Shown here in pieces: positions 2,773-22,275 of a stretch of DNA of 24,000 bases (the stretch's first letter is position 1; each line of letters starts with the position of its first letter). The stretch is from Burkholderiales bacterium PBB1 (GTDB lineage: Bacteria; Pseudomonadota; Gammaproteobacteria; Burkholderiales; Burkholderiaceae_C): the NCBI GenBank assembly GCA_002255905.1, contig NKIN01000003.1:13925-37924 (forward strand). The letters run 5' to 3'. Under the pieces are notes generated by a model. That model searched no databases and was not told where the DNA came from. It saw only the letters and a program-made list of their open reading frames with translations. Position numbers and translations under genes: made by a program.

Positions 2773-2821
2773 ATCACACGACTGAACCCACCGCTGTATC
2801 CATCACCGCAGGCAGCGCATT

Positions 2822-3511: not shown

Positions 3512-4551
3512 CCGCTCTCGATGGCGGCGACATGACCGACCCCGTCGCCGACACCGCTGCAGAGGCACCGCAAGGTCTGCCCGACGACGTGCTGCGCCAC
3601 CTGCAGCACCTGCGGGTCGAAAGGCGCCTCGCCGAGCGCACGCTGGCGATGTACCGCCTGGCCTTCGAGCGCCTGCAACGCTGCGCCGAGGCTGCCCCCG
3701 TGCCACTGCGCGACGTGCTGCCTCACCATGTGCGCCGTTGGGCTGGGCAGATGCACGCACAGGGCCTCGCGCCGGGCAGCATCGCGATCGAGCTGTCGGC
3801 GTGGCGCGGCTTCTACCGCTGGCTGGGTCGCGAGGGCGGGGTGGCGCAGAACCCGGTGGCCGGCGTGCGTGCGCCGCGTGCGCCGAAGCCGCTGCCCAAG
3901 GCCCTGGCTGTTGACCAGGCGGTGGCGCTGGCCGAGTTCCAGGACGACCCCACCGAGCGCCGCGACAGCCCGGCCCTGGCAGCGCGCGACCAGTGCATCA
4001 CCGAGCTGCTGTATGGCTGCGGCCTGCGTGTGGCCGAGCTGGTGGCGCTCGATGTGCAGCCCGGCCCGCAGGCCATCGGCTGGATCGACGTCGCCGACGC
4101 CACGGCGCACGTGCGCGGTAAAGGCAACAAGCCGCGCAGCGTGCCGGTCGGCGGGCCCGCGCTGAAAGCCCTGCAAGCCTGGCTGTCGCTGCGCCCGCAG
4201 ATGGCCACGCCTGGCGAGCCAGCGCTGTTCGTCAGCAACCGCGGCAGCCGCATCACCACCGGGCAGGTGCGTTCGCGCCTGAAGCGGCGGGCACAGCACG
4301 CCGGCCTGCCGACCCATGTGCATCCGCACATGCTGCGCCACTCGTTTGCCTCGCACCTGCTGCAGTCCAGCGGCGATCTGCGCGCGGTGCAGGAGTTGCT
4401 GGGCCACGCCAACATCGCGACGACGCAGGTCTACACCCAGCTCGATTTCGGCCACCTCAGCAAGGTGTACGACGCAGCGCACCCCCGCGCCAAGCTTGTT
4501 GGCCCCCACGTCGCTCCGCTCCTGCCCCCCGAGGGGGCGCCCACCAAGTAG
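3508..4551 (+). CDS. xerC: Tyrosine recombinase XerC
   Basis: 347 aa. It has the N-terminal core-binding region (LRVERRLAERTLAMYRLAF) and the catalytic motifs LLYGCGLRVAELVAL (Arg I), HMLRHSFASHLL (H-x-x-R) and LLGHANIATTQVYTQ (nucleophilic Tyr). The start is GTG 3508; an alternative in-frame ATG lies at 3532. Confidence 0.9.
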   Translation: MTALDGGDMTDPVADTAAEAPQGLPDDVLRHLQHLRVERRLAERTLAMYRLAFERLQRCAEAAPVPLRDVLPHHVRRWAGQMHAQGLAPGSIAIELSAWRGFYRWLGREGGVAQNPVAGVRAPRAPKPLPKALAVDQAVALAEFQDDPTERRDSPALAARDQCITELLYGCGLRVAELVALDVQPGPQAIGWIDVADATAHVRGKGNKPRSVPVGGPALKALQAWLSLRPQMATPGEPALFVSNRGSRITTGQVRSRLKRRAQHAGLPTHVHPHMLRHSFASHLLQSSGDLRAVQELLGHANIATTQVYTQLDFGHLSKVYDAAHPRAKLVGPHVAPLLPPEGAPTK

Positions 4552-7974: not shown

Positions 7975-9570
7975 TCACCCCTCTCGATGGGGCTGAGTTG
8001 GCCACGCGTGATCGTCGTAAGGGCGCCAACGGCCTTCGCGCATTTCTGTCAGCAATCGCTGCAGATCACCGTCGAGAGCGCGGTCCTCGTCGACAAAGCC
8101 GACTGCTCTGCACAGCTCGTCGAACATCAACGCGAGGGCTGGCGTCAGGCTCAGTGGCCGCAGACGCTGGCGCAGCGCCAAAGACTGGCGAGCCGCAATC
8201 AGCATGGCTGCGCCCACCTGCTCGCTCAGGTCCAGCACCCGCAAGCAGTCGCGGGCCGCGATGGTTCCCATGCTGACCTTGTCCTGGTTGTGGCACTCGG
8301 TCGACCGCGAGAAGACCGAGGCAGGCATCGTCCCCTTGAGCGCCTCGGCCGTCCACGCAGACACGCTGATCTGAAGCGCCTTCAGCCCATGGTTGATCGT
8401 CGCGCGCTCCCCCACCGCACCTGAAAGGTTGGCTGGCAGCCCGTGGTTGAAGCGTGTATCGACCAGCAAGGCCAGCTGACGGTCCAGCAAATCGGCGATG
8501 TTCGCCACAGCGGTCTTCAGCGCGTCCATCGCGAAAGCGATGTGACCACCGTAGAAGTGGCCGCCATGCAGCACGCGGCCGTTCTCCGCGTCGATCAGCG
8601 GGTTGTCGTTGGCGCTGTTGAGCTCGTTCTCGATCTGCTGGCGCAGGAACGGCAGCGCATCCTCCAGCACGCCGATCACGTGCGGAGCGCAGCGCAGGGA
8701 GTAACGGTCTTGCAGCCGTGCATCGTTGCGCGAGGGCTTTTCGCTTTCCAGGTCTGCGCGCAGCCGGGCCGCGACGCGCTGCTGTCCCGGGTGGGGCTTG
8801 GCGGCGAAGAGCGTCTCGTCGAAGTGGTGGGCATTGCCGGCGCTGGCGACGACATTGAGCGCGGTGAGCCGCGTTGCCAGTCGGCCGAGGTGGTCGGCGC
8901 GCTGCCACGCGAGGCAGGCCAGCGCTGTCATCACCGCAGTGCCGTTCATCAGCGCCAGACCCTCTTTCGGCCGAAGCCGCAGCGGTTGCAGGCCGACGGC
9001 CGCCAGCGCCTCGGCTGCGGGCATCCGGCGGCCATCGAACACCACCTCACGCTCGCCGCAAATCACGGCGGCCACATAGGACAGTGGCGTCAGATCACCA
9101 CTGGCACCGACAGATCCCTCGGCCGGGATCAGGGGCAAGATGTCGTGCTGGAGCAGTGCCACCAGCTGTTCGAGCAGCGCGACCCCCACGCCAGACATGC
9201 CCCGGCAGAGTGAGGCGAGCCGAGTGGCCAGCACGGCTCGCGTTTCGGTTGGGTCGAGGTGGCGCCCGGCGCCGATGCCGTGATAAGCGTACAGCCGGTG
9301 CGGCAGCTCGGGGACCAGGTGCGGCGGAACAGCCACGGTGCACGAATCCCCGTAGCCGGTCGTCACGCCATAGATCACGCCATCCTCGGCCAGCAGGCGG
9401 GTGACGAAGTCGGCGCCCGCCTGAATCCGTGTACGGAACGTCAGGTCGGTGCTCAGCACCGCCTGACGGCGGCGGTGTGCAATGTCGGCGACGTCCTCGA
9501 TGGAAAGCGGGCGGCCGTCGAAGACCACCGTGTTGACGGTGTCGTAAAGGGCTATCGGGTCACGGCGCAT
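7975..9570 (-). CDS. MIO-dependent aromatic amino acid ammonia-lyase (HAL/PAL/TAL family); probable tyrosine ammonia-lyase supplying p-coumarate
   Basis: The track ORF is 7975..9630. I prefer the ATG at 9570 (MRRDPIALYD..., 531 aa), but 9630 is possible. Family motifs are present: YGVTTGYG, the MIO-forming Ala-Ser-Gly in GSVGASGDLTPLSYVA (codons at 9097-9105), QDRYSLRCAPHV and NQDKVSMG. No hutU/hutI genes are nearby. It is transcribed divergently from pyp, which is the basis for the TAL inference. Confidence 0.8.
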   Translation of the reverse strand: MRRDPIALYDTVNTVVFDGRPLSIEDVADIAHRRRQAVLSTDLTFRTRIQAGADFVTRLLAEDGVIYGVTTGYGDSCTVAVPPHLVPELPHRLYAYHGIGAGRHLDPTETRAVLATRLASLCRGMSGVGVALLEQLVALLQHDILPLIPAEGSVGASGDLTPLSYVAAVICGEREVVFDGRRMPAAEALAAVGLQPLRLRPKEGLALMNGTAVMTALACLAWQRADHLGRLATRLTALNVVASAGNAHHFDETLFAAKPHPGQQRVAARLRADLESEKPSRNDARLQDRYSLRCAPHVIGVLEDALPFLRQQIENELNSANDNPLIDAENGRVLHGGHFYGGHIAFAMDALKTAVANIADLLDRQLALLVDTRFNHGLPANLSGAVGERATINHGLKALQISVSAWTAEALKGTMPASVFSRSTECHNQDKVSMGTIAARDCLRVLDLSEQVGAAMLIAARQSLALRQRLRPLSLTPALALMFDELCRAVGFVDEDRALDGDLQRLLTEMREGRWRPYDDHAWPTQPHREG

Positions 9571-9772
9571 CGTCAATCTGCTCTTCGACGACAGAGATTC
9601 ACCAGTATGGGCTGCGGTCGCCAGTCCCAATGCTCTGAATAGCGCGAAATAAATACGCCTTAAGCATCAAGGCCCGCGGCTGAACGACCGATACCGTCGA
9701 CGGTTGTCGCATCGGGCAGGTGCCGGCGCGGCAACGTTGATCCCAACAGCAGTTCCCAAGGAGTACGCATCA
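9571..9772. promoter_or_regulatory. Divergent promoter/control region between the ammonia-lyase gene and pyp
   Basis: About 200 nt of non-coding DNA between two divergently oriented starts, so it must carry both promoters. It contains an AT-richer patch (gaatagcgcgaaataaatacgccttaagc, about 9640-9668) and a perfect 12-bp palindrome ACCGTCGACGGT at 9693-9704. No -35/-10 boxes were assigned with confidence. Confidence 0.5.
9758..9763 (+). promoter_or_regulatory. Shine-Dalgarno sequence of pyp
   Basis: AAGGAG lies 9 nt upstream of the ATG at 9773. Confidence 0.65.
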
Positions 9773-10165
9773 ATGACAACCGCAACCATGAACACCCTGG
9801 CCTTTGGCAAGACCGATGTCGAGAATGTCCTCTCGAAGATGAACGACGCTCAGCTCAACAAGCTTGCCTTCGGCGCCATCGAGCTCGACGCCACCGGCAA
9901 GATCCTCAAGTACAACGCGGTAGAGGGGGCGATCACCGGCCGCGACCCCAAGGCTGTCATCGGCAAGAGCTTCTTCACTGAGGTGGCGCCCTGCACCAAC
10001 CGGCCCGAGTTCAAGGGTGTCTTCGACGCTGGCGTGCGTTCGAAGAACCTCAATACGATGTTCGAGTACGTGTTCGACCATCAGATGAAGCCGACCAAGG
10101 TCAAGATTCACATGAAGCGGGCGATCTCCGGCGATACGTACTGGGTATTCGTCAAGCGCGTGTGA
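9773..10165 (+). CDS. pyp: Photoactive yellow protein (PYP), canonical type
   Basis: 130 aa from ATG 9773 (the track ORF starts earlier, at 9704). It is near-colinear with Halorhodospira halophila PYP as I remember it: [67 protein letters not shown] and YWVFVKRV. With a uniform +5 offset it retains the equivalents of Tyr42, Glu46, Thr50, Arg52 and the chromophore Cys69 (TGC at 9992-9994). Confidence 0.95.
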
Positions 10166-11430
10166 GCCCGATGGCCGCAGATCCGACTCAAGGCAAGTCG
10201 CGGCCGTGGCATCGGCGGCCGGGTGCGCTGGCACGCTTCGTCGCCGACCTCGTTGCCGACGAGCTGACCCAGTTGCGACCAGGCGGTGTGTCCTTGCCCA
10301 GCCGTCCCTGGCCGGCCGAACTGGAGCTCGACGAGCAAGGCCTGGGGCTGGATTCCCTCGAACGCCTCTCTGTGGCCGCAGCGCTGAACGAGGCGTTGCA
10401 CCTTCATGAAAGCGGTGTCGAGGACTTGCTGCTGGCTCGGACGCGATTCGGAGAATGGCTGGAGGTCGCAGCCGACGGCCTGTCCGCATTCGATGCATCG
10501 CTGACGTTTCGCACCTCGGGCAGCAGCGGGGTCGCCAAGGCGTGTCCCCACGCACTGACCAATCTGTGGCAGGAGGTCGAGCATCTGGCCAGCCTGGTAC
10601 CCAGCACCCGCCGCTTGCTGGCGGCGGTCCCGGCACACCATCTGTACGGATTCCTGTTCACGGCCCTGCTGCCACAGCGCTTGGGTTGCAGCGAAGTGAT
10701 CGACATCCGTCGAATGACGCCGCAGGCGGTGGCCGCGATGATGCGGCCGGGCGATCTGGTGATCAGTCATCCAGCGCACTGGGCGCTGCTGGCGCGGCAC
10801 GCAGGTCGCTTGGCGTCGGGCGTGCAGGGCGTCACGTCCACGGCGCCATGCCCAGAGGCGCTGGCGAGAACGCTTGAAGCCATCGGACTGGATAGGTTGA
10901 TCCAGGTGTACGGGAGCTCTGAGACCGCTGGCATCGGTACCCGAACCGAATCCGGTGCTGCATTTCGGCTGATGCCTTTCTGGTCACGCGATACTGCAGA
11001 TCCCGATTGTCTTCTGCGCAGAGACGCCGACGGGTCGATCCGCTCTCATGCTGTCCAGGACCAACTGGATTGGCACGATGAGCACCAGTTTGACATTTGT
11101 GGCCGGATGGATGGAGCGGTTCAGGTGGGTGGTACCAATGTGTTTCCGGCGCGGGTGCGGCAGGTGCTGCTCGACCACCCGCAGGTCAGCGATGCAGCAG
11201 TGCGCCTGATGACCCCCGACGAGGGCGCTCGACTCAAGGCCTTTGTGGTGCCTGTCCCGGGCACCGATACCGTGGCACTGACATCAGATCTGTGGCGATG
11301 GACCGAGTCGCGCCTGACCGCGCCCGAGCGACCCAAGGCATTCACCGTGGGGCATCAGTTGCCACAAAACGCCATCGGCAAGCCATCGGACTGGGCGCTG
11401 GACGCATCAAGTCCCGTTGTGCAGTTCTGA
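10162..11430 (+). CDS. pcl: 4-coumarate--CoA ligase, PYP-activation type (short AMP-dependent ligase with an N-terminal carrier-protein-like segment)
   Basis: 422 aa. The GTG start at 10162 overlaps the pyp stop (GTGTGA); an alternative ATG lies at 10171. Adenylate-forming motifs are present: [13 protein letters not shown] (P-loop), [18 protein letters not shown] and the C-terminal NAIGKPSDW (catalytic Lys). It sits immediately downstream of pyp, as in known pyp-pcl clusters. Confidence 0.85.
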
Positions 11431-11438
11431 CGCCGCTG

Positions 11439-13229
11439 TTAGACCAACTGCAGGGGCTCGCGCAGCGCAGGCACTGCCCCAGGCTGCGACTGCGCCCGGG
11501 TTTGTGCGGTGAGCCAGAGGGAGGCTTCTTCGCTGCCCATCGGCCGGGCGTACAGATAACCCTGGGCCTTATCGCATCGCAGTGCTTTCAATGCGTCGGC
11601 TTGTGCTTCGGTTTCCACGCCCTCGGCGACGGTTCCCATGCACAGGCTGCGCGCAACCATCACGGTTGCTTCGATCAGTACACGATGGTGCGCGCTCGTT
11701 GTCACCTGGCTGACGAAGGAGCGATCGATCTTGATCACGTCCACCGGCCACAGGTGCAAGCTGGCCAGGGAGGAGTAACCGGTGCCGAAATCGTCCAGCG
11801 CCAGCTTCACCCCCAGGGCCTTCAGTTCATGCAGCCGCGACTGGATCAGCGGGCTTTCGGCGGCCAGGCTCTCCGTGATCTCGAGTTGCAGGCACTCCGC
11901 CGCCATGCCACTCACCTTCAGCGCGTGACGAACTTCATCAACCAGCGTCGACTCGACCAGCTGTGCCCGCGACAGGTTCACCGACAAGACCTGCGGCGCG
12001 CCACCGTCAAACTGCCGCTGCCACAGCACGAACTGCCGGCAAGCCGAGTGAAGGACGTACGCGCCCAGCGGTCCGATCAGGCCGGTCTCCTCCGCAATTT
12101 CGATGAATTCAATTGGCGAGACCACACCGCGCAGCGGATGCTGCCAGCGCACCAGCGCCTCGAAGCCCGCGACACGACCGTCGTCGAGGTGTGTGATCGG
12201 TTGGTACACGACAAAGAGCTGACCGTCCTGCACGGCCAAGCGCAGTTCACTCTCCAGGCTGGCGCGCCGCCAGGCTCGCTCCTTCATCAGTGGCTCGAAA
12301 ACGCAGTGGCGGGCGCCGCCACCTCTCTTGGCTTCGCGCATCGCGAGGCTGGCGTCCTGCAGTACCGCATCGGCATCGGCAGCGTGGCCATCGCCTAGCG
12401 CCACACCGACGCTGGCCGTGCTGTGCACCAGGCCGCCGCTGATGGCATACGGTTTGCGCAACGCATCGACCAGCCGCTGCGCTACCAAGGCCGCCACATC
12501 AATGCTGGGCACCGCCTCGAGAACGACGACGAACTCATCTACGCCGAGCCGGCCGGCGGTCTGGTCTCCCTGCGAATTGAGGATCACCACATCGCGCTGG
12601 CGTACCGCTGCGTTGATGCGCGACGCCATCATTCGCAGCAGCTCGTCGCCGGCAGCAGGGCCCAGGGTGACGTTCACGCGGTTGAACCGATCGCCGTTGA
12701 TGAACAACACCGCGAATCGATGGTCCGGGTCAATGCGAGCCCGCTCCAGCGTGTGCTCGATGCGTTCCAGCACCACGATGCGGTTCGGCATGGCCGTCAG
12801 GCTGTCGATGCGGCTGGCATCTCGCAACTCCGCCTCGACGTGCTGCCGCTCCAGTCGGAGCGCGGCCGTGATGTCGGTGACGCTGCACATCAACATGTGT
12901 GAGTCCAGGCGCAGCAGGCGGATCGACAGGGTCGGCGGGATGTCATCGCCTATGGGGGGAGGCCCCACACTCACGCGCAGGCCGTCGCAGACCTCACCGC
13001 CGGGGTAAGCAGCGGCGGCAGCTTGATCTCGCAGATGCGGCGCGGACCCTTGCAATACGTCAAACAGGTTGCTCAGATCGCCGCGTGGGGCCAGCGGCAT
13101 CAGCAACTGCGCCGACATCGGATTGATCATCGTGATCTCACCGTCCAACGTCGTCTGTACCAGGCCGATCGGGGCTTGGTACAGGAACTGCATCAGCGCC
13201 TCGTGGGCTGCAGAGCTGGAGTCGCTCAT
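11439..13229 (-). CDS. PAS-GGDEF(degenerate)-EAL signalling protein, predicted c-di-GMP phosphodiesterase
   Basis: 596 aa with an N-terminal PAS-like domain. The GGDEF domain has a degenerate signature GVDEF (12531-12545) and a deviating GDRFNRVNVTLG in place of DxFKxxNDxxGH. The EAL domain looks complete: EALVRW (EAL at 12153-12161), SVNLS, EITE, DDFGTGYSSL, KIDRSF, EGVETE and QGYLYARP. Confidence 0.9.
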   Translation of the reverse strand: MSDSSSAAHEALMQFLYQAPIGLVQTTLDGEITMINPMSAQLLMPLAPRGDLSNLFDVLQGSAPHLRDQAAAAAYPGGEVCDGLRVSVGPPPIGDDIPPTLSIRLLRLDSHMLMCSVTDITAALRLERQHVEAELRDASRIDSLTAMPNRIVVLERIEHTLERARIDPDHRFAVLFINGDRFNRVNVTLGPAAGDELLRMMASRINAAVRQRDVVILNSQGDQTAGRLGVDEFVVVLEAVPSIDVAALVAQRLVDALRKPYAISGGLVHSTASVGVALGDGHAADADAVLQDASLAMREAKRGGGARHCVFEPLMKERAWRRASLESELRLAVQDGQLFVVYQPITHLDDGRVAGFEALVRWQHPLRGVVSPIEFIEIAEETGLIGPLGAYVLHSACRQFVLWQRQFDGGAPQVLSVNLSRAQLVESTLVDEVRHALKVSGMAAECLQLEITESLAAESPLIQSRLHELKALGVKLALDDFGTGYSSLASLHLWPVDVIKIDRSFVSQVTTSAHHRVLIEATVMVARSLCMGTVAEGVETEAQADALKALRCDKAQGYLYARPMGSEEASLWLTAQTRAQSQPGAVPALREPLQLV

Positions 13230-13255
13230 CTATCGCTCAATCTTCGCTGTGATGG

Positions 13256-14575
13256 TCAAGTCAATGCGGCGACCGCTGCAGGCCGCAAGCCTGGATGCCA
13301 CCGTTCCACACGGTTGCGCCCGGAGGCCTTGGCGCGGTACATCGCCAGGTCGGCTCGCTCGATGAAGGCTTCGACGCTGTCCACCGACGCATCCATCGTC
13401 GCCACGCCTATGCTCACCGTGTAATGCAGACTCGCGCTGTTCACGTTGACCGCCTGCTCGGAAACGCTGTGACATAGGCGCTGAGCGACCGTGGCAGCGG
13501 CATCTTCGGTGCAGCCTGGCAGCAGCACCACGAACTCTTCACCGCCCAAACGCGCGACGATGTCCATGGCTCGGAACGTGGCCGACAGGCCGGCGGCCAG
13601 GTGACGAAGCACCGCATCGCCTGCTGCATGACCATGCTCGTCGTTGATGCGCTTGAAGTGGTCCGCATCGATCAGCACCAGTGACAGCGGCCGGGGGGTG
13701 CGGCGCCAGCGCTGCAGCTCCAACTCGCAGGCCTCGAACAGCGCGCGGCGATTGGCCAGGCCAGTAAGGTGGTCACATGCCACCGAGCGGCGCAGCGCCT
13801 CGGTGGCTTCGCGCCGGTCGGACACATCCCGGATCACCAGGCTGTAGGCGCGCTCTTCGTCCAAGGCTTCATCGGGCGCGTGCAAAGGCGCGATCAGGCA
13901 ACTGCCCCAGAAGCGGCTTCCATCTGCGCGTTGGCGCCAGCCTTCATCCAGACTCCAGCCACTGCGATCGGCCTCGTGCAGCCGGTCGATGGCGTCCATC
14001 GATTCCAGCGAATCGGGTGGGTAAAAGATCGAATATGACTTGCCGACGCAGGTGGCGCTCTGATGGGCGGTCACGCGCTCCACACTGCTGTTCCAATCGC
14101 GCACCCGACCCTGGTCGTCCAGCGTCATCAGGCCGTAGTCCGTCAGTCCAGTGACGATGGTGTTGATCCACGCCTGGCTTTGCCTCAACTCACGTTCGCG
14201 CTGCACGCTTTGCGTGACGTCGCCGAGCACCGCCATCAGGCGACCCTCATCGAGCTTCAACAATGTCAGCGACAAGATGCTTCGACCCAGCTTGCGTACG
14301 GGGTCCGCGGCCACCCGCAGTTGCCAGCCTTCGCAGATCATGCCGTGCGAGGACTCGAAGCGTTGCACGGCGGTCCGCAGGTCTGGCGCGACGCTTTCCA
14401 GGGCGTTGTAGAGGTTGTTGAGCTCGCCGTCGCGTGCCAGTGGCATCAACAGCTGGGCGCACAGCGGGTTCACCATCAGGATCTCGCCATCGATGCGAGT
14501 CTGCATGAGTCCGATCGGAGCGAGGTACAAGAACTGGATCAGCGCCTCGTAGTCTTCCTCAACGGTCGTGTCCAT
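13256..14575 (-). CDS. PAS-PAS-GGDEF diguanylate cyclase
   Basis: 439 aa. It has an N-terminal PAS-like domain paralogous to that of the downstream gene and a second PAS domain (TLDDQGRVRDWNSSVERVTAH...). The GGDEF domain is canonical: DHLTGLANRR, IDADHFKRINDEHGHAAGD, and GGEEF at 13532-13546. An RxxD I-site (RAMD) lies five residues upstream of GGEEF. Confidence 0.9.
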   Translation of the reverse strand: MDTTVEEDYEALIQFLYLAPIGLMQTRIDGEILMVNPLCAQLLMPLARDGELNNLYNALESVAPDLRTAVQRFESSHGMICEGWQLRVAADPVRKLGRSILSLTLLKLDEGRLMAVLGDVTQSVQRERELRQSQAWINTIVTGLTDYGLMTLDDQGRVRDWNSSVERVTAHQSATCVGKSYSIFYPPDSLESMDAIDRLHEADRSGWSLDEGWRQRADGSRFWGSCLIAPLHAPDEALDEERAYSLVIRDVSDRREATEALRRSVACDHLTGLANRRALFEACELELQRWRRTPRPLSLVLIDADHFKRINDEHGHAAGDAVLRHLAAGLSATFRAMDIVARLGGEEFVVLLPGCTEDAAATVAQRLCHSVSEQAVNVNSASLHYTVSIGVATMDASVDSVEAFIERADLAMYRAKASGRNRVERWHPGLRPAAVAALT

Positions 14576-14589
14576 GGCCTGTGGTTGCT

Positions 14590-14982
14590 TCAGGTCGAGC
14601 GTTGGACGAGCACATAGCGGGTGGCCGCCCCGGGCAGCGCCAGCAGCCGCAACTTCACCTTGACCGGGCGCATGCGCAGCGTGAGCACGTAGTCGATGAC
14701 GTCATCCAGCGACGTGCTGTTGGCCAGCGCGTCTTCGAAGCGCTGGGCGACCATGAAGTTGTTCATGCACGGCGCCACCACGGTGAACAGCGGCTGCCCC
14801 AGGACGCGGGCACTCGACAGACCAGCGGCTTTGCTTTCGAAGCTGTTGTAGCGCCGAACGATGCCGTTGGCATCGAAGCCGATCACGCCAAAGTTGAGAG
14901 AGTCGAGTTCGTCGTCGCTGTAGCGGTCCAGTTCGGAATGCAGCGCTGTGTCGCTGAAGGAAACGGCTTGGGTGGTGTGCAT
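14590..14982 (-). CDS. Photoactive yellow protein paralogue (divergent PYP-like single PAS protein)
   Basis: 130 aa, colinear with PYP at a uniform +3 offset. It retains Tyr45 (=Y42), Glu49 (=E46) and Cys72 in VAPC (=C69; codon at 14767-14769). The C-terminal beta-sheet pattern RMRPVKVKLRL...RYVLVQR parallels QMTPTKVKVHM...YWVFVKRV. Thr50 is replaced by Ala and Arg52 by Leu. It is the first gene of the operon with the DGC, whose start lies 14 nt after its stop. Confidence 0.85.
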   Translation of the reverse strand: MHTTQAVSFSDTALHSELDRYSDDELDSLNFGVIGFDANGIVRRYNSFESKAAGLSSARVLGQPLFTVVAPCMNNFMVAQRFEDALANSTSLDDVIDYVLTLRMRPVKVKLRLLALPGAATRYVLVQRST

Positions 14983-15396
14983 AGCAGATTCTCGCGAGAC
15001 CGATCAGTACATCGATATCGGCCGCACGGCTCACAACTTGAGAGTTGCAGCGACCTGTTGATTGCCATCCAGCAGTGATCCAGTGGGTCGGGCCAACAAG
15101 CGCCCACTGATGCATTCGGCAGAGTGCGGGCACCCGACGACCGTGAGTTTTCCTAAGGCCGTCCCTGTGGCCGGCGAGCACATTTGAATCGCTTTGCAGG
15201 CCGCACGGGCGTGCTAGCTCGGTGGTCAGGTTTTCGAATGAAGCAGCCGATCGCACCGGCGAAACTTGACTGGCCGCTTTCGGTGACACCTGTCACTTGT
15301 CCGCGTCATCTGACCGACCGGCACCAGTCTGGTACTGCCCTTCGGGTGCGCGACGTGAAAGCTTGCCGATGGCCGGTTGACGGCGATCAAAACTCC
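14983..15396 (-). promoter_or_regulatory. Long non-coding region upstream of the pyp2 operon (promoter/leader) and downstream of the qor-like gene
   Basis: 414 nt with no convincing ORF, and locally AT-richer than the flanks. By gene arrangement it must hold the pyp2 operon promoter and any terminator for the upstream minus-strand operon. Inverted repeats seen: CAGTGGG-N15-CCCACTG (15081-15109), CAACT-N4-AGTTG (15034-15047) and GTGACA-CC-TGTCAC (15283-15296). Confidence 0.45.
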
Positions 15397-16437: not shown

Positions 16438-17508
16438 CTACAGGCGGCGCGGCATCAGCACGGTGTAATCGAGGTCGAGCACCACCGCCGGGTCGCTGGC
16501 ACCGGCTGCGTCCTGGTCGGGGTAGTCGTGGCATGCGCGGTCCTTGGTCGCCACGGTGCGCAGCCGCAGCGCGCCCACATCGGCGCGGCCGGGCAGCGGG
16601 GTCTTGCCCAGCACTTCGGACCAGGCATAGATGGTGTCGCCCGCAAAGCTCGGGGCCGCGTGCCGGCCGCCGTTGATCGCGGCGATGCACAGCGCATTCG
16701 CCAGCCCATTGAACGACAAGGCGCGCGCCAGGCTGATGACATGACCACCGTAGACGATGCGCTTGCCGAAACGGCCTTCGCGCTCCACGTGCTGGTTGAA
16801 GTGCACCTTGGCGGTGTTCTGGTACAGCCGCGTGGCCAGCATGTGCTCGGCTTCTTCGATGGTCATGCCGTCGACGTGGTCAATGCGCTCGCCCACCGCG
16901 TAGTCGTCCCACAGAAACTCGCTGCCCGCCCGCACGGCGTCGTAGGGCAGGGCGCCCAGCGCCCACGGGCAGTGCAGATCCTCCACCGGCACGGCCTCGG
17001 GCAGCGTCGGCACCACGGCGTCGGGCGCCGGTGCATCGAGGTCGCGCTTGCGCACCATCACCCAGCGGCGAAAGTCCAGCACCATCTCGCCGCGCTGGTT
17101 GGTGCCGGTTGAATGCACGTAGACCACGCCGGTCTTGCCGTCCTTGTTCTGGCGCAGGCCGATCACGGTGGAGTCGCTGGTCACGGTGTCGCCGGGGTAC
17201 ACGAAGGCGCCGAAGCGGCAGCCTGCATACCCGAGGTTGGCGACCGCGTTCAGCGAGACATCGGCCACCGTGCGGCCAAACACCATGTGGAAGGCCAGCA
17301 TCGAATCGACCGGCGCACACGGCAGCCCGAGGGCCTGGGCGAACGGGTCCGACGACGACAGCGCGAACCGCGAGCCGAACAGCGCGGTGTACATCGCCAC
17401 GTCGCCGGTGGTGAGGGTGCGCGGTACCGCGTGCGCGATGTGCTGGCCGAGGCGGAAGTCTTCGAAGTAGTTGCCGGCGCGTGTCTTGGTGCGGGTTTGG
17501 GTGGTCAT
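16438..17508 (-). CDS. MaoC-like double hot-dog enoyl-CoA hydratase, mesaconyl-CoA (2-methylfumaryl-CoA) hydratase-like (Mch)
   Basis: 356 aa. The N-terminus GNYFEDFRLGQHIAHAVPRTLTTGD, the size (about 350 aa) and the two-lobed MaoC layout fit the Mch family. It lies 13 nt downstream of an Mcl-type lyase gene. The subfamily call is inference from context plus remembered family features. Confidence 0.7.
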   Translation of the reverse strand: MTTQTRTKTRAGNYFEDFRLGQHIAHAVPRTLTTGDVAMYTALFGSRFALSSSDPFAQALGLPCAPVDSMLAFHMVFGRTVADVSLNAVANLGYAGCRFGAFVYPGDTVTSDSTVIGLRQNKDGKTGVVYVHSTGTNQRGEMVLDFRRWVMVRKRDLDAPAPDAVVPTLPEAVPVEDLHCPWALGALPYDAVRAGSEFLWDDYAVGERIDHVDGMTIEEAEHMLATRLYQNTAKVHFNQHVEREGRFGKRIVYGGHVISLARALSFNGLANALCIAAINGGRHAAPSFAGDTIYAWSEVLGKTPLPGRADVGALRLRTVATKDRACHDYPDQDAAGASDPAVVLDLDYTVLMPRRL

Positions 17509-17521
17509 GGCGGCCCTGTCC

Positions 17522-18565
17522 CTAGAAGCCGTAGGCTGCGGCCAGTTCAGGATCCTTGCGTGCCACCAGGCGCGCCAGATCGACCATCACCTTGGCCTGC
17601 TTCCAGGTGGCGTCGTCCTGCATCTTGCCGTCGATGGTGGCCACACCGGTGCCATCGGGCATGGCCTCGAGGATGCGCTTGGCGAACAGCACCTCCTTCA
17701 CGTCGGGGCTGAACACGCGCTTGGCGATGGCGATCTGGTTCGGCGCCAGCGACCACGCGCCGGCACAGCCCATGATGAAGGCGTTGCGGAATTGCGCTTC
17801 GCAGCCGGCTTCGTCCTTCAGGTCGCCGAACGGGCCGTAGAAGCTGCGCAGGCCGCTGGCCGCGCAGGCGTCGACCATGCGCGCCAGCGTGTAGTGCCAC
17901 AGGTCCTGCTGCACATAGCTGCGCTCGGGCTGGCCCTCGACCGGATCGGCCAGCACGCCGTAACCCGGGTGGCCACCGCCAACGCGGGTGGTCTTCATGC
18001 CGCGCGAGGCCGCCAGGTCGGCGGGGCCCAGGCTCATGCCGTGCATCCGCGGGCTGGCCTGCGCGATCTGCTCGACGTTCTTCACGCCTTCGGCGGTTTC
18101 GAGCAGCGCATGGATCAGGATGGGCTTCTTCACGCCATGCCGCGCCTCGAGCTGCGCCAGGTACTGGTCGACGTAGTGGATGTCCCAGGGCCCCTCGACC
18201 TTCGGGATCATCACCGCGTCGAGCCGGTTGCCGACGCCTTCGACGATCTGCGCCAGGTCGTCGAGGATCCACGGGCTGTTCAGGCAGTTCACCCGCACCC
18301 ACAGGCCGGTGTCGCCAAGGTTGGCGGCTTTCACGCCGTCGATGAAACCCTGCCGCGCCGCGCCCTTGGCGTCGATGGGAATCGCGTCTTCAAGGTTGCC
18401 GCAGAGCACGTCGACCTGCGCCGCGGTGTCGGAGAGGCGGGCGCGGATTTTCTCGATGTGCGGCGGGAAGAAATGCACCACCCGCTCGGGCCGCACCGGC
18501 AGTTCACGGAACGGGGCCGGCGCGCCGATGGCCAGCGGCTTGTAGAAATTGTTGGGCAGCTTCAT
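17522..18565 (-). CDS. L-malyl-CoA/beta-methylmalyl-CoA (citramalyl-CoA) lyase, HpcH/CitE-like aldolase family (Mcl type)
   Basis: 347 aa. Blocks align with characterised malyl-CoA lyases (Rhodobacter Mcl1 and Chloroflexus Mcl, as I remember them): [98 protein letters not shown] and [12 protein letters not shown]. Confidence 0.85.
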
Positions 18566-18593
18566 CGATGCGGATCCTCGCTGGAAATGAGAT

Positions 18594-19820
18594 TCAGGTT
18601 GCCGACGGCCCGGCCACGATGCCGGCGTCGTGCAGTTGGCCGACCTCGGCCGACGGCAGACCGAGCACGTCGAGCAGGATCTGGTCGGTGTGCTCGCCCA
18701 GGCGCGGTGCCGGTCGGGCTGGCAAGCGCGGGACTTTACTGAAGTCCAACGGCGATGCCGGTGCCAGCGAGCGGCCGATGCCCGGCTGGTCGAGCCAGCT
18801 GAACATCGGGTGCGCCGTCGACAGGTCAGGGTCCTGCTCGATCGCCTGGCGCACGGTGCGGTAAGGGCCCCAGGTCACGCGGGCGGCTTCGAAGGCGGCC
18901 CGCACCTCGGCCAGCGTGCGCGCGGCAAACCACGGGGCAAAAATCGCCACCAGCGCCTCGCGCGCGAGAAAGCGATTGCCTTCCTGGTTCAGATCGAGCC
19001 CGGTCTGCTCTGACAGCGCGGTGATTGCTGCGGCCGTGCCGGTGGCCTTGACCAGGCAGCTCCACTGCAGGTCGGTGAGGCCCACCACCATCGCACGTTC
19101 GCCGTCTCGGGTGACGAAGTCGCAGCCAAAGGCGCCATACAGGTGGTTGCCGTAGCGTGGTCGGTCGACGTCGTTGACCTGCACCTCGGCCAGCATGCCC
19201 AGATGGCCGAGCATGGCCAGGCCCACGTCCTTCAATGCCAACGTGACGAGCTGGCCCTCGGCGTGCCGGTCGCGGTGGCGAAGGGCGGCGAGCATCGCTG
19301 TCGCGATCATGTTGCCGGCAATCGCGTCCCAGGCCGGGAACACATGGTTGGCAGGCACCGGGCTGTCGGCCGGGCCGGTCAGCATCGGGAACCCAAGACC
19401 GGGGTTGACGGTGTAGTCGACCTCCGACCCGCCGTCGCGGCGGCCGAGCAGGTTGACCATGATGAGGTCGGCGCGCCGGGATGCCAGCGTGTCGTAGGCC
19501 AGCCAGCCGCGCGCCGGGAAGTTGGTGCTGAACAGCCCCGCATCGGCGCCTGGGGCGCAGATCAGCGCAGTCAGCAGTTCCTGCCCGCGCGGCTGGCGGA
19601 TGTCGACCGCAATCGAGCGCTTGCCCTTGTTCATGCCGGCCCAGAACAGCGATGCCCCGTTGGCGGCCACCGGCCAGCGGGCGTGGTCCAGTCCGCCACC
19701 GATGGGGTCGAAGCGGATCACGTCGGCGCCGAGTTGGGCGAGCGTCATGCCGCCGAGTGGCGCTGCGACGAAGGCCGAGCCTTCGATCACGCGCAAGCCA
19801 TGAAGAATGCCGTTTGCCAT
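18594..19820 (-). CDS. Class III (CaiB/BaiF family) CoA-transferase, divergent member
   Basis: 408 aa with the N-terminal family motif [31 protein letters not shown]. Its start codon directly abuts the stop of the upstream transferase (TGA-ATG, 0-nt spacer at 19820/19821). It is much less similar to the two upstream transferases than they are to each other. Confidence 0.85.
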
Positions 19821-21050
19821 TCAGACCACCCCGGTCGCACGCAGATGCGCGATTTGCGCGTCGTCCAGGCCGAGCAGTTCGTGCAGCACCTCGTCGGTGT
19901 GCTCGCCGAGCTTGGGGCCCAGGCTGCGGATGCTCGCCGGCGTCTCCGACAGCCGTGGCACGGGCGCCGGCACGATGACCTGCTCGCCCGTGTCCGGTGC
20001 GTCCATGGTCACCAGGTTGCGACGGGCATGGAACTGCCGATCGCCGAAGATGTCCGCGATGTTGTTCAGCGGGCCGGCCGGCGTGTCGGTGGCGTAGCAG
20101 CGCTCGAGTACCTGCTCGCGGGTCAGCGCACCGCACCAGTCGCGCACGATCTCGTTGACGTCGTGGCGGTGGGCCAGCCGCGTGGCCTGCTCGCCGTAGG
20201 TCTCTGCCGTGGCGAGTTCGGGCCGGCCCATGGCCTTGGCCAGACGCTCGAACAGCAGGTCGGTGGCGCAGCTGATGGCGACCCACTTGCCGTCTTTCGT
20301 CGAGAAGTGCCCGTGCGGAACGGCGAAGTCGTTGTGCGACGAGCCTGAACGTTCACGCACGGTGCCGAACATGCCGTAGGCCGGCGCCAGTTCCTCGGTG
20401 CAACGGAACACCGACTCGTACAGCGCCGCATCGACGTACTGCCCGATACCCGTGCGCTCCTTGTGGCGCAGCGCCAGCATCACGCCCAGGCACCCGTACA
20501 GGCCGGTCATGTAATCGCCCAGCGTCGTCGAGCCGGGCGTGACCGGTGTGCCCTTGGGCATGCCGGCCAGGTAGGCGATGCCGCCGACGGCATGCGCCAC
20601 GCGGGCGAAACCGGGGCGGTCCTTGTAGGGCCCGGTCTGACCATAGCCGGTCACGCGCAGCATGACCAGGCCGGGGTTGATCTTCTTCAGCACCTCCCAG
20701 CCCAGGCCCCATTTCTCGAGCGTGCCGGTGCGAAAGTTCTCGCACAGCACGTCGGTCTTGGCGATCATCTGCTTGAAGACCTCGCCGCCTTCGGGATGGC
20801 GCAGATCAAGGGTGACCGAACGCTTGTTGCGCCCCTCGCTCAGCCAGGTCAGCGTGTCGCCCCGCTGCGACGGCGTGCCGAAGCGCCGCAGCGCATCGCC
20901 GCCGTCGGGGTGCTCGACCTTCAGCACCTCGGCGCCGAATTCGCCCAGCAACGTGGCGCAGAAGGGCGCGGCGATCACCGTGGCCAGGTCGATGACGCGG
21001 ATACCGGCCAGCGGCAGCGGCGTGGGCGGGCTGACATTCGAGGCGTTCAT
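19821..21050 (-). CDS. Class III (CaiB/BaiF family) CoA-transferase, paralogue B
   Basis: 409 aa. It has [47 protein letters not shown] and [10 protein letters not shown]-like C-terminal blocks. Only a 1-nt spacer separates it from the upstream paralogue, and its RBS (GAAAGG) lies inside that gene's 3' end. Confidence 0.85.
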
Positions 21051-21051
21051 G

Positions 21052-22275
21052 TCAGATCACCTTTCTTTCACGCAGCCTGTGCAGTTCTTCAGCGTGTACA
21101 CCGAGCAGGCCGTGCAGCACGTCGGTGGTGGCGTTGCCCAGGGTCGGGCCGAGGTGGGTGATGCGCCCGGGCGTGGCCGACAGGCGCGGGATCACGCCCG
21201 GCACCACCACTTCGCCGAGTTCGTCGGCAGGCACACGTGCCAGATTGCCGCGCGCTGCAAAGTGCTCGTCGACAAAGATGTCGGCGATCGAGTTGACCTT
21301 GCCCACGGGCACCTCCTCGGCCAGACAGCGTTCAAGCACGTCGGTGCGCTCGAGCGAGGCCACCCATTCGGTGACGATCTTGTTGATGTGGTCACGCGCG
21401 GCCAGGCGCTTGCGCTGCGGGCCGTACTGGTCGGGCGCCGACAGCTCGGGCCGGCCCATCGCCACGCTCAGCCGCTCGAACATCTTGTCGGTGGTGCAGG
21501 CGATGGCGATCCATTTGTCGTTCTTGGTCCGGAAGTGGCCGTGCGGACAGGCCACGAAGCTGCCCGAGCCTTCACGCTCGCGGATCTTGCCGTGCAGCCC
21601 GTACGAAGCGGCAATTTCCTCGAGCACGCGGAAGATGGCTTCGTAGATGCCCACGTCGATGACCTGACCGACGCCGGTGGCCTCGGCGTGCCGCAGCGCG
21701 ACCAGCACGCCGATGGCTCCGAACAGGCTGGCGATGTAGTCGCCCAAGGGCACCGTGCCAGGCAGCACCGGGGTCTCGCCCGGAAAGCCGGCCAGGTAGT
21801 TCAGCCCGCCGAAGGCCTGTGCAATGTGGGCGAAGCCGTGGCGGCGGCGGTAGGGTCCGGTCTGGCCGTATCCGGTCACGCGCAGCATCACCAGCTTGGG
21901 GTTGGCCTGGCGCAGCACGTCCCACCCCAGGCCCCACCCTTCCATCGTTCCCGGGCGGAAGTTCTCGATCAGCACGTCGCTCTTGGCCACGAGCTTCAGG
22001 AACAGCGCCACGCCTTCGGGCTGCAGCAGATCGATGGTCACCGAGCGCTTGTTGCGACTCTCGCTCAACCATTTGAGGGTCGCATCGGGGCGATCGGTCG
22101 GGGTGCCGAAGCGGCGCATCGGGTCGCCGCCCAGCGGATGCTCGACCTTGATCACGTCGGCACCGAACTCGCCCATCACCGCGCCCGCGTACGGCCCCGC
22201 GAGGAAGTTCCCGACGTCGATGACGCGCACGCCATCCAGTGGCAGTTCGGCGGGCGTGGCGTCGGTCGGCATCAT
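21052..22275 (-). CDS. Class III (CaiB/BaiF family) CoA-transferase, paralogue A
   Basis: 407 aa, with [33 protein letters not shown] and [14 protein letters not shown]. It is colinear with paralogue B, with roughly half the positions identical by eye. It is the first gene of the minus-strand operon, and GGAG/GAGG lies upstream of the tandem ATG ATG start. Confidence 0.85.

Follow-up and report, generated by a model that had tools for sequence, protein, structure and literature searches.

The minus-strand locus at positions 11439 to 14982 of the window (the whole 24,000-nucleotide stretch that was analyzed, from Burkholderiales bacterium PBB1) is, in our judgment, fairly probably one instance of an operon that is widespread among betaproteobacteria. 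In it, a clade C pyp gene precedes genes for a diguanylate cyclase (DGC) and a c-di-GMP phosphodiesterase (PDE), and the products would form a multiprotein light-to-c-di-GMP switch. PMC9664959 and PMC12826048 had already put forward, as hypotheses from bioinformatics, this operon type and the idea that a photoactive yellow protein (PYP) modulates the neighboring enzymes. What we add concerns an N-terminal domain (NTD): its predicted PAS nature, its sharing by both enzymes, its occurrence on a histidine kinase (HK), alone, and fused to PYP, and its candidacy as the PYP receiver.

Layout of the operon and its surroundings

The features discussed below are as follows.

14983-15396, minus strand: intergenic region 5' of pyp2, 414 nt; presumed promoter/leader
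14590-14982, minus strand: pyp2, 130 aa; clade C PYP, first gene of the operon
13256-14575, minus strand: DGC, 439 aa; NTD-PAS-GGDEF
14201-14575, minus strand: DGC NTD; predicted divergent PAS fold plus N-cap helix, candidate PYP receiver
13808-14134, minus strand: DGC second, conventional PAS domain, aa 148-256; PAS, PAS_9, PAS_4, TIGR00229
13310-13780, minus strand: DGC GGDEF catalytic domain, aa 266-422; E = 7.5e-46
11439-13229, minus strand: PDE, 596 aa; NTD, degenerate GGDEF (GVDEF), EAL
12840-13229, minus strand: PDE NTD, paralogue of the DGC NTD, 43% identity
12315-12809, minus strand: PDE degenerate GGDEF domain, aa 141-305; E = 7.9e-31, motif GVDEF
11541-12248, minus strand: PDE EAL domain, aa 328-563; E = 2.3e-70
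10162-11430, plus strand: pcl, p-coumarate-CoA ligase (pCL); TIGR02372, 343 bits, over the cutoff
9704-10165, plus strand: pyp1, canonical H. halophila-like PYP; TIGR02373, 190 bits
7975-9630, minus strand: aromatic amino acid ammonia-lyase, presumed tyrosine ammonia-lyase (TAL); divergent from pyp1

An earlier note on this DNA had described three closely packed minus-strand genes separated by 14 and 26 nt, and we recovered exactly that arrangement (pyp2-DGC spacer, 14576-14589; DGC-PDE spacer, 13230-13255). A 414-nt intergenic region lies upstream of pyp2. Therefore, pyp2 was taken as the operon leader. The GC content of this region is lower than that of its flanks, no sigma-70-like consensus was found in it, and it had no Rfam match. 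Scanning 19 long open reading frames across the window revealed no transcription factor or kinase, in agreement with the claim that the locus has no DNA-binding or kinase output.

PYP2 is a divergent member of the PYP family

By its sequence, PYP2 is a clade C PYP in the scheme of Xing et al. (2022). Its score against TIGR02373 (photoactive yellow protein) was 74.9 bits (E = 5.7e-21), under the equivalog cutoff of 143. All 33 matches in a PDB sequence search were PYPs, led by the Ppr PYP domain (1mzu; E = 9e-17). When the AF2 model of PYP2 (pLDDT 93.8) was submitted to Foldseek, the top 40 hits were PYP or PYP-derived structures, with native PYPs at a TM score of about 0.9 and an rmsd of 1.7 Å. 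Tyr42, Glu46, and Cys69 are retained (Y45, E49, and C72 in PYP2 numbering), so the description of a 130-aa paralogue that keeps the chromophore Cys and the Tyr/Glu pair was correct. Conservation was near complete across 160 orthologues with 59 to 87% identity (Tyr42, 156/157; Glu46, 157/157; Cys69, 159/159; Met100, 159/159).

PYP2 also keeps Met100 and has the substitutions T50A, R52L, F92I, F96L, and W119Y. Loss of F92, F96, and W119 with retention of Met100 is the clade C hallmark given in the accessible part of PMC9664959, which records no experimental characterization of this clade. The same source notes a misannotation as "phosphonate transporter," and PYP2 itself bears that label. Because Thr50 and Arg52 are absent, the spectrum and kinetics of PYP2 may differ from those of classical PYP. 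"Blue" light is our assumption for a protein whose spectral tuning residues differ (positions 50, 52, 96, and 119). We infer that PYP2 attaches the chromophore and undergoes a photocycle.

A cyclase and a phosphodiesterase share an N-terminal domain

The cyclase has a GGEEF motif, with RAMD five residues upstream (the I-site), and DADHFK. In the degenerate GGDEF domain of the phosphodiesterase, the metal-binding Asp and the Lys are replaced (INGDRFN), and the Asn and Asp that contact guanine seem to have been kept; its role is probably regulatory. All of the EAL catalytic motifs are present (EALVR, N, EITE, DDFGTGYSS, KID, EGVE, and QGY). These features, together with the fold of the NTD, bear out the earlier reading of a PAS-PAS-GGEEF cyclase and a PAS-GGDEF(degenerate)-EAL phosphodiesterase.

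Both enzymes begin with an NTD of about 125 aa, and the two copies match each other with E = 4e-34. Neither NTD matched Pfam up to E = 1, no Pfam or NCBIfam model reached its threshold, and there was no significant match to a solved structure. However, AF2 predicted a PAS fold (pLDDT 87), and we interpret the NTD as a divergent PAS domain on the basis of sequence and model. At least 90% conservation in both enzyme classes was seen at 27 positions, clustered in the N-cap helix and an "NPxxAQLLMPL" segment.

The NTD is modular. Behind clade C pyp, it occurs at the N terminus of a histidine kinase (L167/L168). It also occurs directly after clade C pyp as stand-alone proteins of 145 to 158 aa (about 148 aa; 21 clusters), in operons ordered HK-PYP-NTD-pCL (L169-L174) or PYP-NTD-pCL (L166). 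Metagenomes contain PYP-NTD-PAS-GGDEF fusion reading frames (P0199; P0228, partial), although the contigs are short, P0200, one of the three such frames, carries an obvious frameshift, and read-through artifacts are possible. An NTD that is common to both enzymes, carried by a kinase, free-standing, and fused to PYP is therefore likely to be the PYP receiver or docking site. In the accessible parts of PMC9664959 and PMC12826048, neither the shared N-terminal PAS domain with its stand-alone and HK-linked forms nor direct PYP-GGDEF fusions without a phytochrome are described.

Gene order is conserved in both directions

We examined the 80 best-matching genome loci, with PYPs 64 to 87% identical to PYP2, from genera including Rubrivivax, Aquincola, Methylibium, Paucibacter, Variovorax, Hydrogenophaga, Massilia, Telluria, Janthinobacterium, and Methyloversatilis. 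An NTD-bearing c-di-GMP enzyme gene was directly 3' of pyp in 80/80, and the full trio of PYP, GGEEF cyclase, and EAL protein was present in 58/80. Genes were tightly coupled, with a median pyp-enzyme gap of 12.5 nt, a median second junction of 1 nt, and frequent overlaps (-4 and -11). A reverse search from the NTD in metagenomes found clade C pyp immediately upstream in 80/80 of the best loci. The two sets of 80 are the closest relatives among 443 and 446 hits, not a random sample. The arrangement is far beyond chance, as dozens of genera show the same order of genes. Synteny of this PYP subfamily with GGDEF/EAL genes, which the earlier note had proposed checking, was thus seen in all 80 genome loci. 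Its Rosetta-stone argument, that the stand-alone PYP signals to the c-di-GMP enzymes by protein contact, gains support, all of it comparative, from the synteny, the reverse search, and the metagenomic fusions.

Chromophore genes next door

Translation of pyp1 probably starts at an internal ATG close to 9776-9791. The pcl gene overlaps pyp1 by 4 nt and is convergent with the PDE gene. TAL from the window is 69 to 77% identical to the lyase linked to clade C pyp in Methyloversatilis and Methylibium loci. Among 72 related loci with enough flank, 26 had pCL within 10 kb of clade C pyp, and seven Methyloversatilis genomes have TAL, pCL, PYP, DGC, and PDE in that order on one strand, without a second PYP. 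The suggestion that neighboring chromophore genes serve PYP2 therefore holds as to adjacency, and these relatives make the supply itself plausible.

Alternative explanations

The operon might coexpress proteins that make no contact. The NTDs would then respond to a signal of their own (redox state or a small molecule, perhaps through the near-invariant Cys81), PYP2 would act on an unlinked partner, and two independent c-di-GMP inputs would be coregulated. The intact PAS fold is consistent with this, as is Cys81 on the cavity-lining G-beta strand, conserved in 95 to 97% of both enzyme classes and also in the stand-alone forms. The coevolution check of PYP2 against the NTDs also fits and counts against the switch that we favor: a mirror-tree (distance-matrix) test gave no PYP-NTD signal above that of the operon's other domains, the partial r with PYP being 0.40 to 0.41 for the NTDs versus 0.42 to 0.54 for PAS2 and the GGDEF domain of PDE. 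However, an NTD was directly 3' of clade C pyp at every examined locus, whatever the output (DGC, PDE, HK, or none). Such strict two-way linkage would be unexpected of an independent ligand sensor, the PYP-NTD fusions also argue against it, and we consider coexpression alone unlikely. A second way to account for paralogous NTDs on both enzymes is that they are dimerization modules that join DGC and PDE in a heterocomplex, with PYP2 acting elsewhere, e.g., on the second PAS domain of DGC. PAS N-cap helices commonly mediate dimerization, and the N-cap helix is the most conserved part of the NTD. Even so, loci with just one NTD enzyme still have it beside pyp (L014, L032, L039, L053, L082, and L165), as do stand-alone and HK-linked NTDs, and the stand-alone operons lack a second NTD as a pairing partner. 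These arrangements make a purely dimerizing role quite improbable.

PYP2 might instead regulate the enzymes as an apoprotein or as a PAS domain for another ligand (e.g., free hydroxycinnamates or redox) and not be a light sensor. Its subthreshold TIGR02373 score and its loss of Thr50, Arg52, Phe96, and Trp119 fit this, as does the proposal of neofunctionalized PYP homologues in methylobacteria (PMC9664959). We regard it as very unlikely, as the near invariance of Cys69, Tyr42, Glu46, and Met100 is the mark of functional PYPs in the accessible part of that paper, and pCL and TAL are linked to clade C pyp even at loci that have no further PYP in the vicinity. Finally, the NTD might assist chromophore loading, as a maturation factor or chaperone, and not be a signal receiver. 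At all examined stand-alone loci (L166, L169-L172, and L173/L174), its gene does lie exactly between pyp and pcl, the stop of one gene overlapping the start of the next. However, the NTD is mostly at the N terminus of signaling enzymes, which is a sensor or receiver position, and TAL and pCL alone load classical PYPs (cited in PMC12826048). We give this idea hardly any weight.

Comparison with known systems

Ppd of Thermochromatium tepidum (PYP-bacteriophytochrome-GGDEF-EAL) also has a PYP input and a c-di-GMP output, but it is a single polypeptide with a clade A PYP and a phytochrome between PYP and the output domains. In the window, the proteins are separate, without a phytochrome, and have a special candidate PAS receiver instead. 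In PapB (BLUF)/PapA (EAL) of Rhodopseudomonas palustris and in H-NOX/HaCE, a small sensor controls a c-di-GMP enzyme from the same operon by protein-protein contact. Those sensors belong to other families, use other cofactors, and act on a single enzyme, whereas the locus described here has two antagonistic enzymes that both carry a paralogous candidate receiver domain.

The Idiomarina loihiensis PYP is likewise a single-domain protein beside a c-di-GMP enzyme gene (GGDEF), with biofilm as the presumed output. It has been linked to light-regulated biofilm formation, but it is in clade A, and its GGDEF interaction is described as putative (PMC9664959 and PMC12826048, accessible parts). When the earlier note called the downstream partners of single-domain PYPs essentially unknown, it overlooked Rhodobacter capsulatus, whose PYP (Rc-PYP) binds the PYP-binding protein PBP (RCAP_rcc01067), encoded by the neighboring gene, in a light-dependent manner (10.1101/2021.06.01.446672). 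PBP is a 142-aa dimer with predicted N-terminal helices followed by beta strands (10.1101/2021.06.01.446672) and, judged by description, resembles the stand-alone NTDs (N-cap helix plus PAS). Here, too, a single-domain PYP has an adjacent-gene partner, albeit a candidate one. However, Rc-PYP, unlike PYP2, is in clade A; it is a UV-A/blue photochromic sensor.

The nearest precedents are the catalogued clade C (Meyer group 6) PYPs, mostly from Burkholderiales, which share the clade, residue pattern, pyp-GGDEF-EAL order, and hypothesized mechanism described here. Xing, Gumerov and Zhulin 2022 (PMC9664959, Fig. 6D) propose that PYP modulates adjacent c-di-GMP enzymes, and Dohmen et al. 2025 (PMC12826048, Table 2) propose the same, with 29 pyp operons containing GGDEF and 22 containing EAL. 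Unlike those catalogued operons, the one in the window additionally has a second PYP gene, the canonical pyp1, beside it, along with the TAL and pCL genes.

In the switch that we favor, PYP2 would receive p-coumarate through the neighboring TAL and pCL, and light would isomerize the chromophore and change the shape of PYP2. The dedicated NTDs on the cyclase and the phosphodiesterase would sense this change; we infer direct PYP-NTD contact and the direction of regulation of each enzyme. Through one photoreceptor, light might thereby shift how much c-di-GMP is made (by GGEEF, subject to I-site feedback) relative to how much is broken down (by EAL, next to a degenerate, probably regulatory GGDEF).

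Organization of the PYP2 operon

Three minus-strand genes encode the photoactive yellow protein PYP2, a diguanylate cyclase (DGC), and a phosphodiesterase (PDE), with spacers of 14 nt and then 26 nt between them. The genes, coordinates, and spacers claimed in the earlier note match the ORFs exactly. A 414-nt noncoding stretch separates PYP2 from an upstream quinone oxidoreductase gene. A canonical PYP (PYP1) and chromophore supply genes lie nearby, with the end of PYP1 and the start of the p-coumarate-CoA ligase gene (pCL) sharing 4 nt.

Features of the locus (window positions)
7975-9630, minus strand, presumed tyrosine ammonia-lyase (TAL)
9704-10165, plus strand, PYP1, canonical and H. halophila-like (TIGR02373, 190.2 bits)
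10162-11430, plus strand, pCL (TIGR02372, 343 bits, over the cut-off)
11439-13229, minus strand, PDE, 596 aa
12840-13229, minus strand, N-terminal domain (NTD) of PDE
13256-14575, minus strand, DGC, 439 aa
14201-14575, minus strand, NTD of DGC
14590-14982, minus strand, PYP2, 130 aa
15397-16422, quinone oxidoreductase gene

The window is high-GC DNA (62 to 71%). We scanned 19 long ORFs across it, which encode housekeeping or CoA-metabolism proteins. None was a transcription factor or kinase, in agreement with the earlier note. Rfam gave no match to an RNA element or riboswitch anywhere in the window, the 414-nt leader included. A σ70 consensus search found none, and terminator-like sites were no more numerous than expected from shuffles. 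The pCL stop codon (11428-11430, plus) and the PDE stop codon (11439-11441, minus) are convergent, with 8 nt between them. No terminator-like hairpin was found in this gap, and so the PYP1-pCL and PYP2 transcription units may read into each other.

Two other regions of the window drew our attention. Upstream of the oxidoreductase gene, a minus-strand run (16438-22275) encodes a MaoC/mesaconyl-CoA-hydratase-like protein, an HpcH/HpaI (malyl-CoA-lyase-like) aldolase, and three paralogous family-III CoA-transferases. These genes resemble a C4/C5-dicarboxylate-CoA pathway, and no link between them and the PYP genes was evident. A 328-aa minus-strand ORF (2774-3760) has no Pfam match and overlaps a xerC-like recombinase ORF on the opposite strand. 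Given the high GC content, it is probably not a gene.

PYP2 has the features of a clade-C PYP

PYP2 is 100% identical to a PBB1 (metagenome-assembled) protein annotated "phosphonate transporter," a typical wrong annotation of PYP homologues (PMC9664959). It is 33% identical to PYP1. The only solved structures that matched PYP2 by sequence were PYPs, the best being the PYP domain of R. centenum Ppr (E = 9e-17). We also compared an AF2 model (pLDDT 93.8, pTM 0.87) with the PDB by using Foldseek, and every one of the top 40 matches was a PYP or PYP derived. Native PYP structures aligned to the model with TM scores of 0.86 to 0.92 and an rmsd of about 1.7 Å. Modeled in this way, PYP2 has both the PAS fold and the PYP-type N-terminal cap.

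PYP family members are recognized by the chromophore-binding Cys69 together with at least one of Tyr42 and Glu46. PYP2 retains all three, because its C72, Y45, and E49 align with Cys69, Tyr42, and Glu46, respectively. This bears out the chromophore Cys and Tyr/Glu pair described in the earlier note. Among 160 orthologues, Cys69 was retained in 159/159, Tyr42 in 156/157, and Glu46 in 157/157, and Met100 was essentially invariant. PYP2 scored 74.9 bits against TIGR02373, below the equivalog cut-off of 143.05 bits. This is expected for clade C, because TIGR02373 covers only about 20% of PYP homologues (PMC9664959). The hallmarks of clade C are loss of Phe92, Phe96, and Trp119, conservation of Met100, occurrence mostly in Burkholderiales, and GGDEF/EAL neighbors (Xing et al. 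2022, PMC9664959). PYP2 keeps Met100 and has the changes Thr50 to Ala, Arg52 to Leu, Phe92 to Ile, Phe96 to Leu, and Trp119 to Tyr. Its residues, host group, and gene neighbors all match clade C, to which we assign it on these hallmarks. A PCMNNF(L/M)VAxRFEDA surface is specific to clade-C PYPs.

Some database proteins found with PYP2 were unusual. P0122 (1174 aa) is a methyl-accepting chemotaxis protein with four tandem C-terminal PYP domains, each retaining the Tyr42, Glu46, and Cys69 motifs (YN.AEG...VAPCT). Two multi-PAS giants, P0121 and P0153, were discarded as PYP relatives of interest because they are generic PAS arrays. P0121 (4799 aa) is a giant hybrid histidine kinase with about 32 consecutive PAS domains, and weak PAS matches, added together, were the sole reason that it ranked first in the PYP2 search.

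The cyclase and the phosphodiesterase are both predicted to be active

The domain strings that the earlier note gave for DGC and PDE were right, including the N-terminal PAS domain of each. In DGC, this domain is followed by a conventional PAS domain at aa 148-256 and then by a GGDEF domain (Pfam, E = 7.5e-46). Active cyclases have GG(D/E)EF and a metal-binding Asp plus Lys (DxDxFK), and an RxxD I-site is optional. DGC has GGEEF with a RAMD I-site five residues upstream, as well as DADHFK, and it is predicted to be an active diguanylate cyclase. The EAL domain of PDE (Pfam, E = 2.3e-70) retains every catalytic motif of active EAL domains: EAL(V)R, the catalytic Asn, ExxE, the DDFGTGYSS loop 6, KID, EGVE, and QG(Y/F). 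Therefore, by its motifs PDE is a predicted active phosphodiesterase.

The GGDEF domain of PDE is degenerate (GVDEF), with its metal and lysine positions altered. The two residues, Asn and Asp, through which active cyclases contact guanine are retained. GTP-sensing degenerate GGDEF domains are known in other GGDEF-EAL phosphodiesterases. Because the guanine-contacting residues are kept, this domain may be a GTP-sensing regulatory domain. In most relatives (the second gene after pyp in loci L005 to L084), the EAL protein has an intact GGDEF motif. Among the loci examined, the GVDEF form occurs in the window and closer relatives (L001, L005 to L012, L020, and L021). The EAL protein is 799 to 919 aa long in nine loci, with a C-terminal extension (PAS_7 plus GGDEF in L001).

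Neither DGC nor PDE had a GAF or PHY match in Pfam. Ppd-type proteins carry PYP, bacteriophytochrome (PAS-GAF-PHY), and GGDEF/EAL domains in one polypeptide, whereas the window genes are separate. Therefore, the locus is not of the Ppd type and is likened to it at the level of input and output alone.

DGC and PDE share a divergent N-terminal PAS domain

The NTDs of DGC and PDE, each about 125 aa, are 43% identical to one another (E = 4e-34). The window NTDs had no Pfam or NCBIfam PAS match up to E = 1. Stand-alone NTD proteins from other loci reached only 12 to 18 bits against PAS_8, under its cut-off of 21.8, and an NTD profile had no significant match among solved structures. An AF2 model (pLDDT 87.3) has an N-cap helix followed by a PAS topology of two strands, helices, and three strands, and its best Foldseek matches were PAS domains throughout. 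As modeled, the NTD is a PAS fold, even though curated models miss it.

In both enzyme classes, 27 NTD positions show conservation of at least 90%, and these cluster in the N-cap helix (E10 to Q25) and in the motif NPxxAQLLMPL (N36 to L46). Cys81, on the G-beta strand, is 95 to 97% conserved in both classes and is also present in stand-alone NTDs. Its conservation suggests a cofactor, redox, or (covalent) contact role. A protein search with the window NTD returned 33 short fragments only, probably a word-index artifact that is uninformative about family size. An NTD fragment with 62% identity to that of the window, P0292 (93 aa, on a 386-nt contig), is labeled "hypothetical protein, partial [Escherichia coli]" in NCBI/UniRef. 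Contamination or mislabeling is likely, given the tiny contig.

PYP and NTD genes are conserved neighbors

We scanned one genome per GTDB species, and 443 genomes had a PYP2 relative. The scan was built on 11 closer sequences (a 34-sequence alignment gave no conserved stretch), and so the loci are biased toward at least 64% identity. We examined the best 80 of the 443 (64 to 87% identity to PYP2), from genera including Rubrivivax, Aquincola, Methylibium, Paucibacter, Variovorax, Hydrogenophaga, Xylophilus, Massilia, Telluria, Pseudoduganella, Janthinobacterium, and Methyloversatilis. The gene directly 3' of pyp started with an NTD in 80/80 of these loci. The full trio, in which PYP is followed by NTD-PAS-GGEEF (about 440 aa, with RxxD) and then NTD-GGDEF-EAL (about 590 aa), was present in 58/80. 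Conserved synteny of this PYP subfamily with GGDEF/EAL genes, on which the earlier note's proposal depended, is therefore upheld in these loci. The median gap was 12.5 nt at the first junction and 1 nt at the second, where overlaps of 4 or 11 nt are frequent. Variants had the EAL gene first or a single protein running from NTD through GGDEF to EAL (906 to 920 aa in four loci and 592 aa in L082). In an activated-carbon metagenome, a copy with 79% identity keeps the trio in a completely different flank. We conclude that the trio moves as a unit.

The reverse test began from the NTD. Its profile found 446 relatives in metagenome contigs, and in the best 80 loci a clade-C pyp lay 9 to 211 nt upstream of the first NTD gene in every case (80/80).

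More distant clade-C PYPs (41 to 50% identity to PYP2) have an NTD partner in other forms. The PYP gene is followed by NTD-PAS-GGDEF in L165, by an NTD joined to an apparent histidine-kinase H-box in L167 and L168, and by a stand-alone 148-aa NTD protein and then pCL in L166. L167 also has a tandem pyp pair (3-266, cut by the contig end, and 444-800) before its NTD-histidine-kinase gene. The profile search, which is biased toward short proteins, gave 21 clusters of stand-alone NTD proteins (145 to 158 aa). Three of their operons were looked up, and all had the order histidine kinase, PYP, NTD, pCL. The PYP and NTD junctions in these operons overlap by 4 nt. PYP and NTD are fused in two metagenomic ORFs. 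One is P0199, a 558-aa PYP-NTD-PAS-GGDEF protein on contig Ga0370489_0015034 (JGI 3300034127), and the other is P0228, which is partial. A third apparent fusion, P0200, was rejected because it is frameshifted and both of its ends are out-of-frame translation.

Always beside one sensor, with varied outputs, and sometimes free or fused to that sensor, the NTD behaves like a dedicated PYP receiver in these comparisons. A mirror-tree/partial-correlation test of 46 operons, the window operon and 45 trios from genomes, found no PYP-NTD excess; all operon domains co-vary alike (r = 0.77 to 0.93).

Clade-C PYPs have their own links to chromophore supply

Among the 72 loci with enough flank, pCL was within 10 kb of the clade-C pyp in 26. 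In Massilia, the two genes are adjacent and divergent. Seven Methyloversatilis genomes have TAL, pCL, PYP, DGC, and PDE in that order, all on the same strand, and no further PYP lies nearby. Clade-C PYPs thus have a link of their own to p-coumarate supply, and there is no need to regard PYP2 as a mere satellite of PYP1. The linkage of pCL and TAL to clade-C pyp is also indirect evidence that PYP2 may bind p-coumaric acid covalently and undergo a photocycle. Only 3/80 related genomes (L005, L020, and L028) have a PYP1-pCL(-TAL) module beside the clade-C trio, and their arrangements all differ (convergent, downstream on the same strand, or upstream on the same strand). In this sublineage, two PYP types may therefore feed one output.

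Discussion

PYP is among the best-studied photoreceptors in biophysics. To our knowledge it has no established signaling partner, a question that has stood since the 1980s. The putative link from PYP2 to the c-di-GMP enzymes is supported by strong comparative evidence. In the mechanism that we propose as the best supported, TAL and pCL would load PYP2 with its chromophore, and light activation would alter how PYP2 contacts the NTDs of DGC and PDE. The altered contact would shift the balance between c-di-GMP synthesis and hydrolysis, with the cyclase under product feedback through its I-site.

Other explanations would give the NTD a different role. It might sense a signal of its own independently of PYP2, or it might serve to dimerize DGC and PDE. 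However, its modular distribution beside PYP genes, including as a free protein and with other outputs, argues against both. The NTD might instead be a maturation factor, but its fusion to the N termini of the enzymes is difficult to reconcile with that. PYP2 itself might not be photoactive, although its chromophore site is invariant among orthologues and clade-C genes are linked to pCL. We put at about an even chance the joint reading that the NTD is a dedicated, unnamed family of PYP-receiver PAS domains and that one photoreceptor reciprocally controls two antagonistic enzymes. In this joint reading, the receiver can plug clade-C PYPs into an attached cyclase, phosphodiesterase, or histidine kinase, or possibly act as a free adaptor.

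Published work already describes this type of operon and proposes that PYP modulates its enzymes. Clade-C PYPs are "often found adjacent to" GGDEF proteins, and a model has been drawn in which PYP modulates adjacent GGDEF/EAL proteins (Xing et al. 2022, PMC9664959). Among 113 predicted pyp operons, GGDEF occurs in 29 and EAL in 22 (Dohmen et al. 2025, PMC12826048). HisKA/HATPase genes are preferentially upstream of pyp and pCL downstream, and two or more PYPs occur in 16% of genomes (PMC12826048). Both papers stress that clade-C PYPs are uncharacterized. Their results, discussion, and operon sections make no mention of the shared N-terminal PAS domain, which fits with curated Pfam and NCBIfam models missing it. 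Biochemical evidence exists for only one partner of a single-domain PYP, the PYP-binding protein (PBP) of R. capsulatus, a 142-aa dimer encoded by an adjacent gene and predicted to have N-terminal helices followed by beta strands (10.1101/2021.06.01.446672). Its resemblance in these features to stand-alone NTD proteins is suggestive, and the NTD may be in the same family.

What we add is a concrete candidate interface, a PYP-coupled PAS receiver common to both enzymes, which makes the old question of the PYP signaling partner directly testable. In this operon family, the candidate contact, between a clade-C PYP and a specific PAS receiver, is defined and conserved across many genera. Its readouts are enzymatic, c-di-GMP synthesis and hydrolysis, and its cultured hosts include Methyloversatilis (M. 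universalis FAM5), Aquincola (A. tertiaricarbonis), Massilia, Paucibacter, and Variovorax. Homology of the NTD to R. capsulatus PBP, if it holds, would connect hundreds of operons to the one PYP partner that biochemistry has shown. If the PYP-NTD contact is true, it would be the first mechanistic PYP signaling pathway, a natural two-armed c-di-GMP photoswitch, and a small portable PYP/receiver pair for optogenetics.
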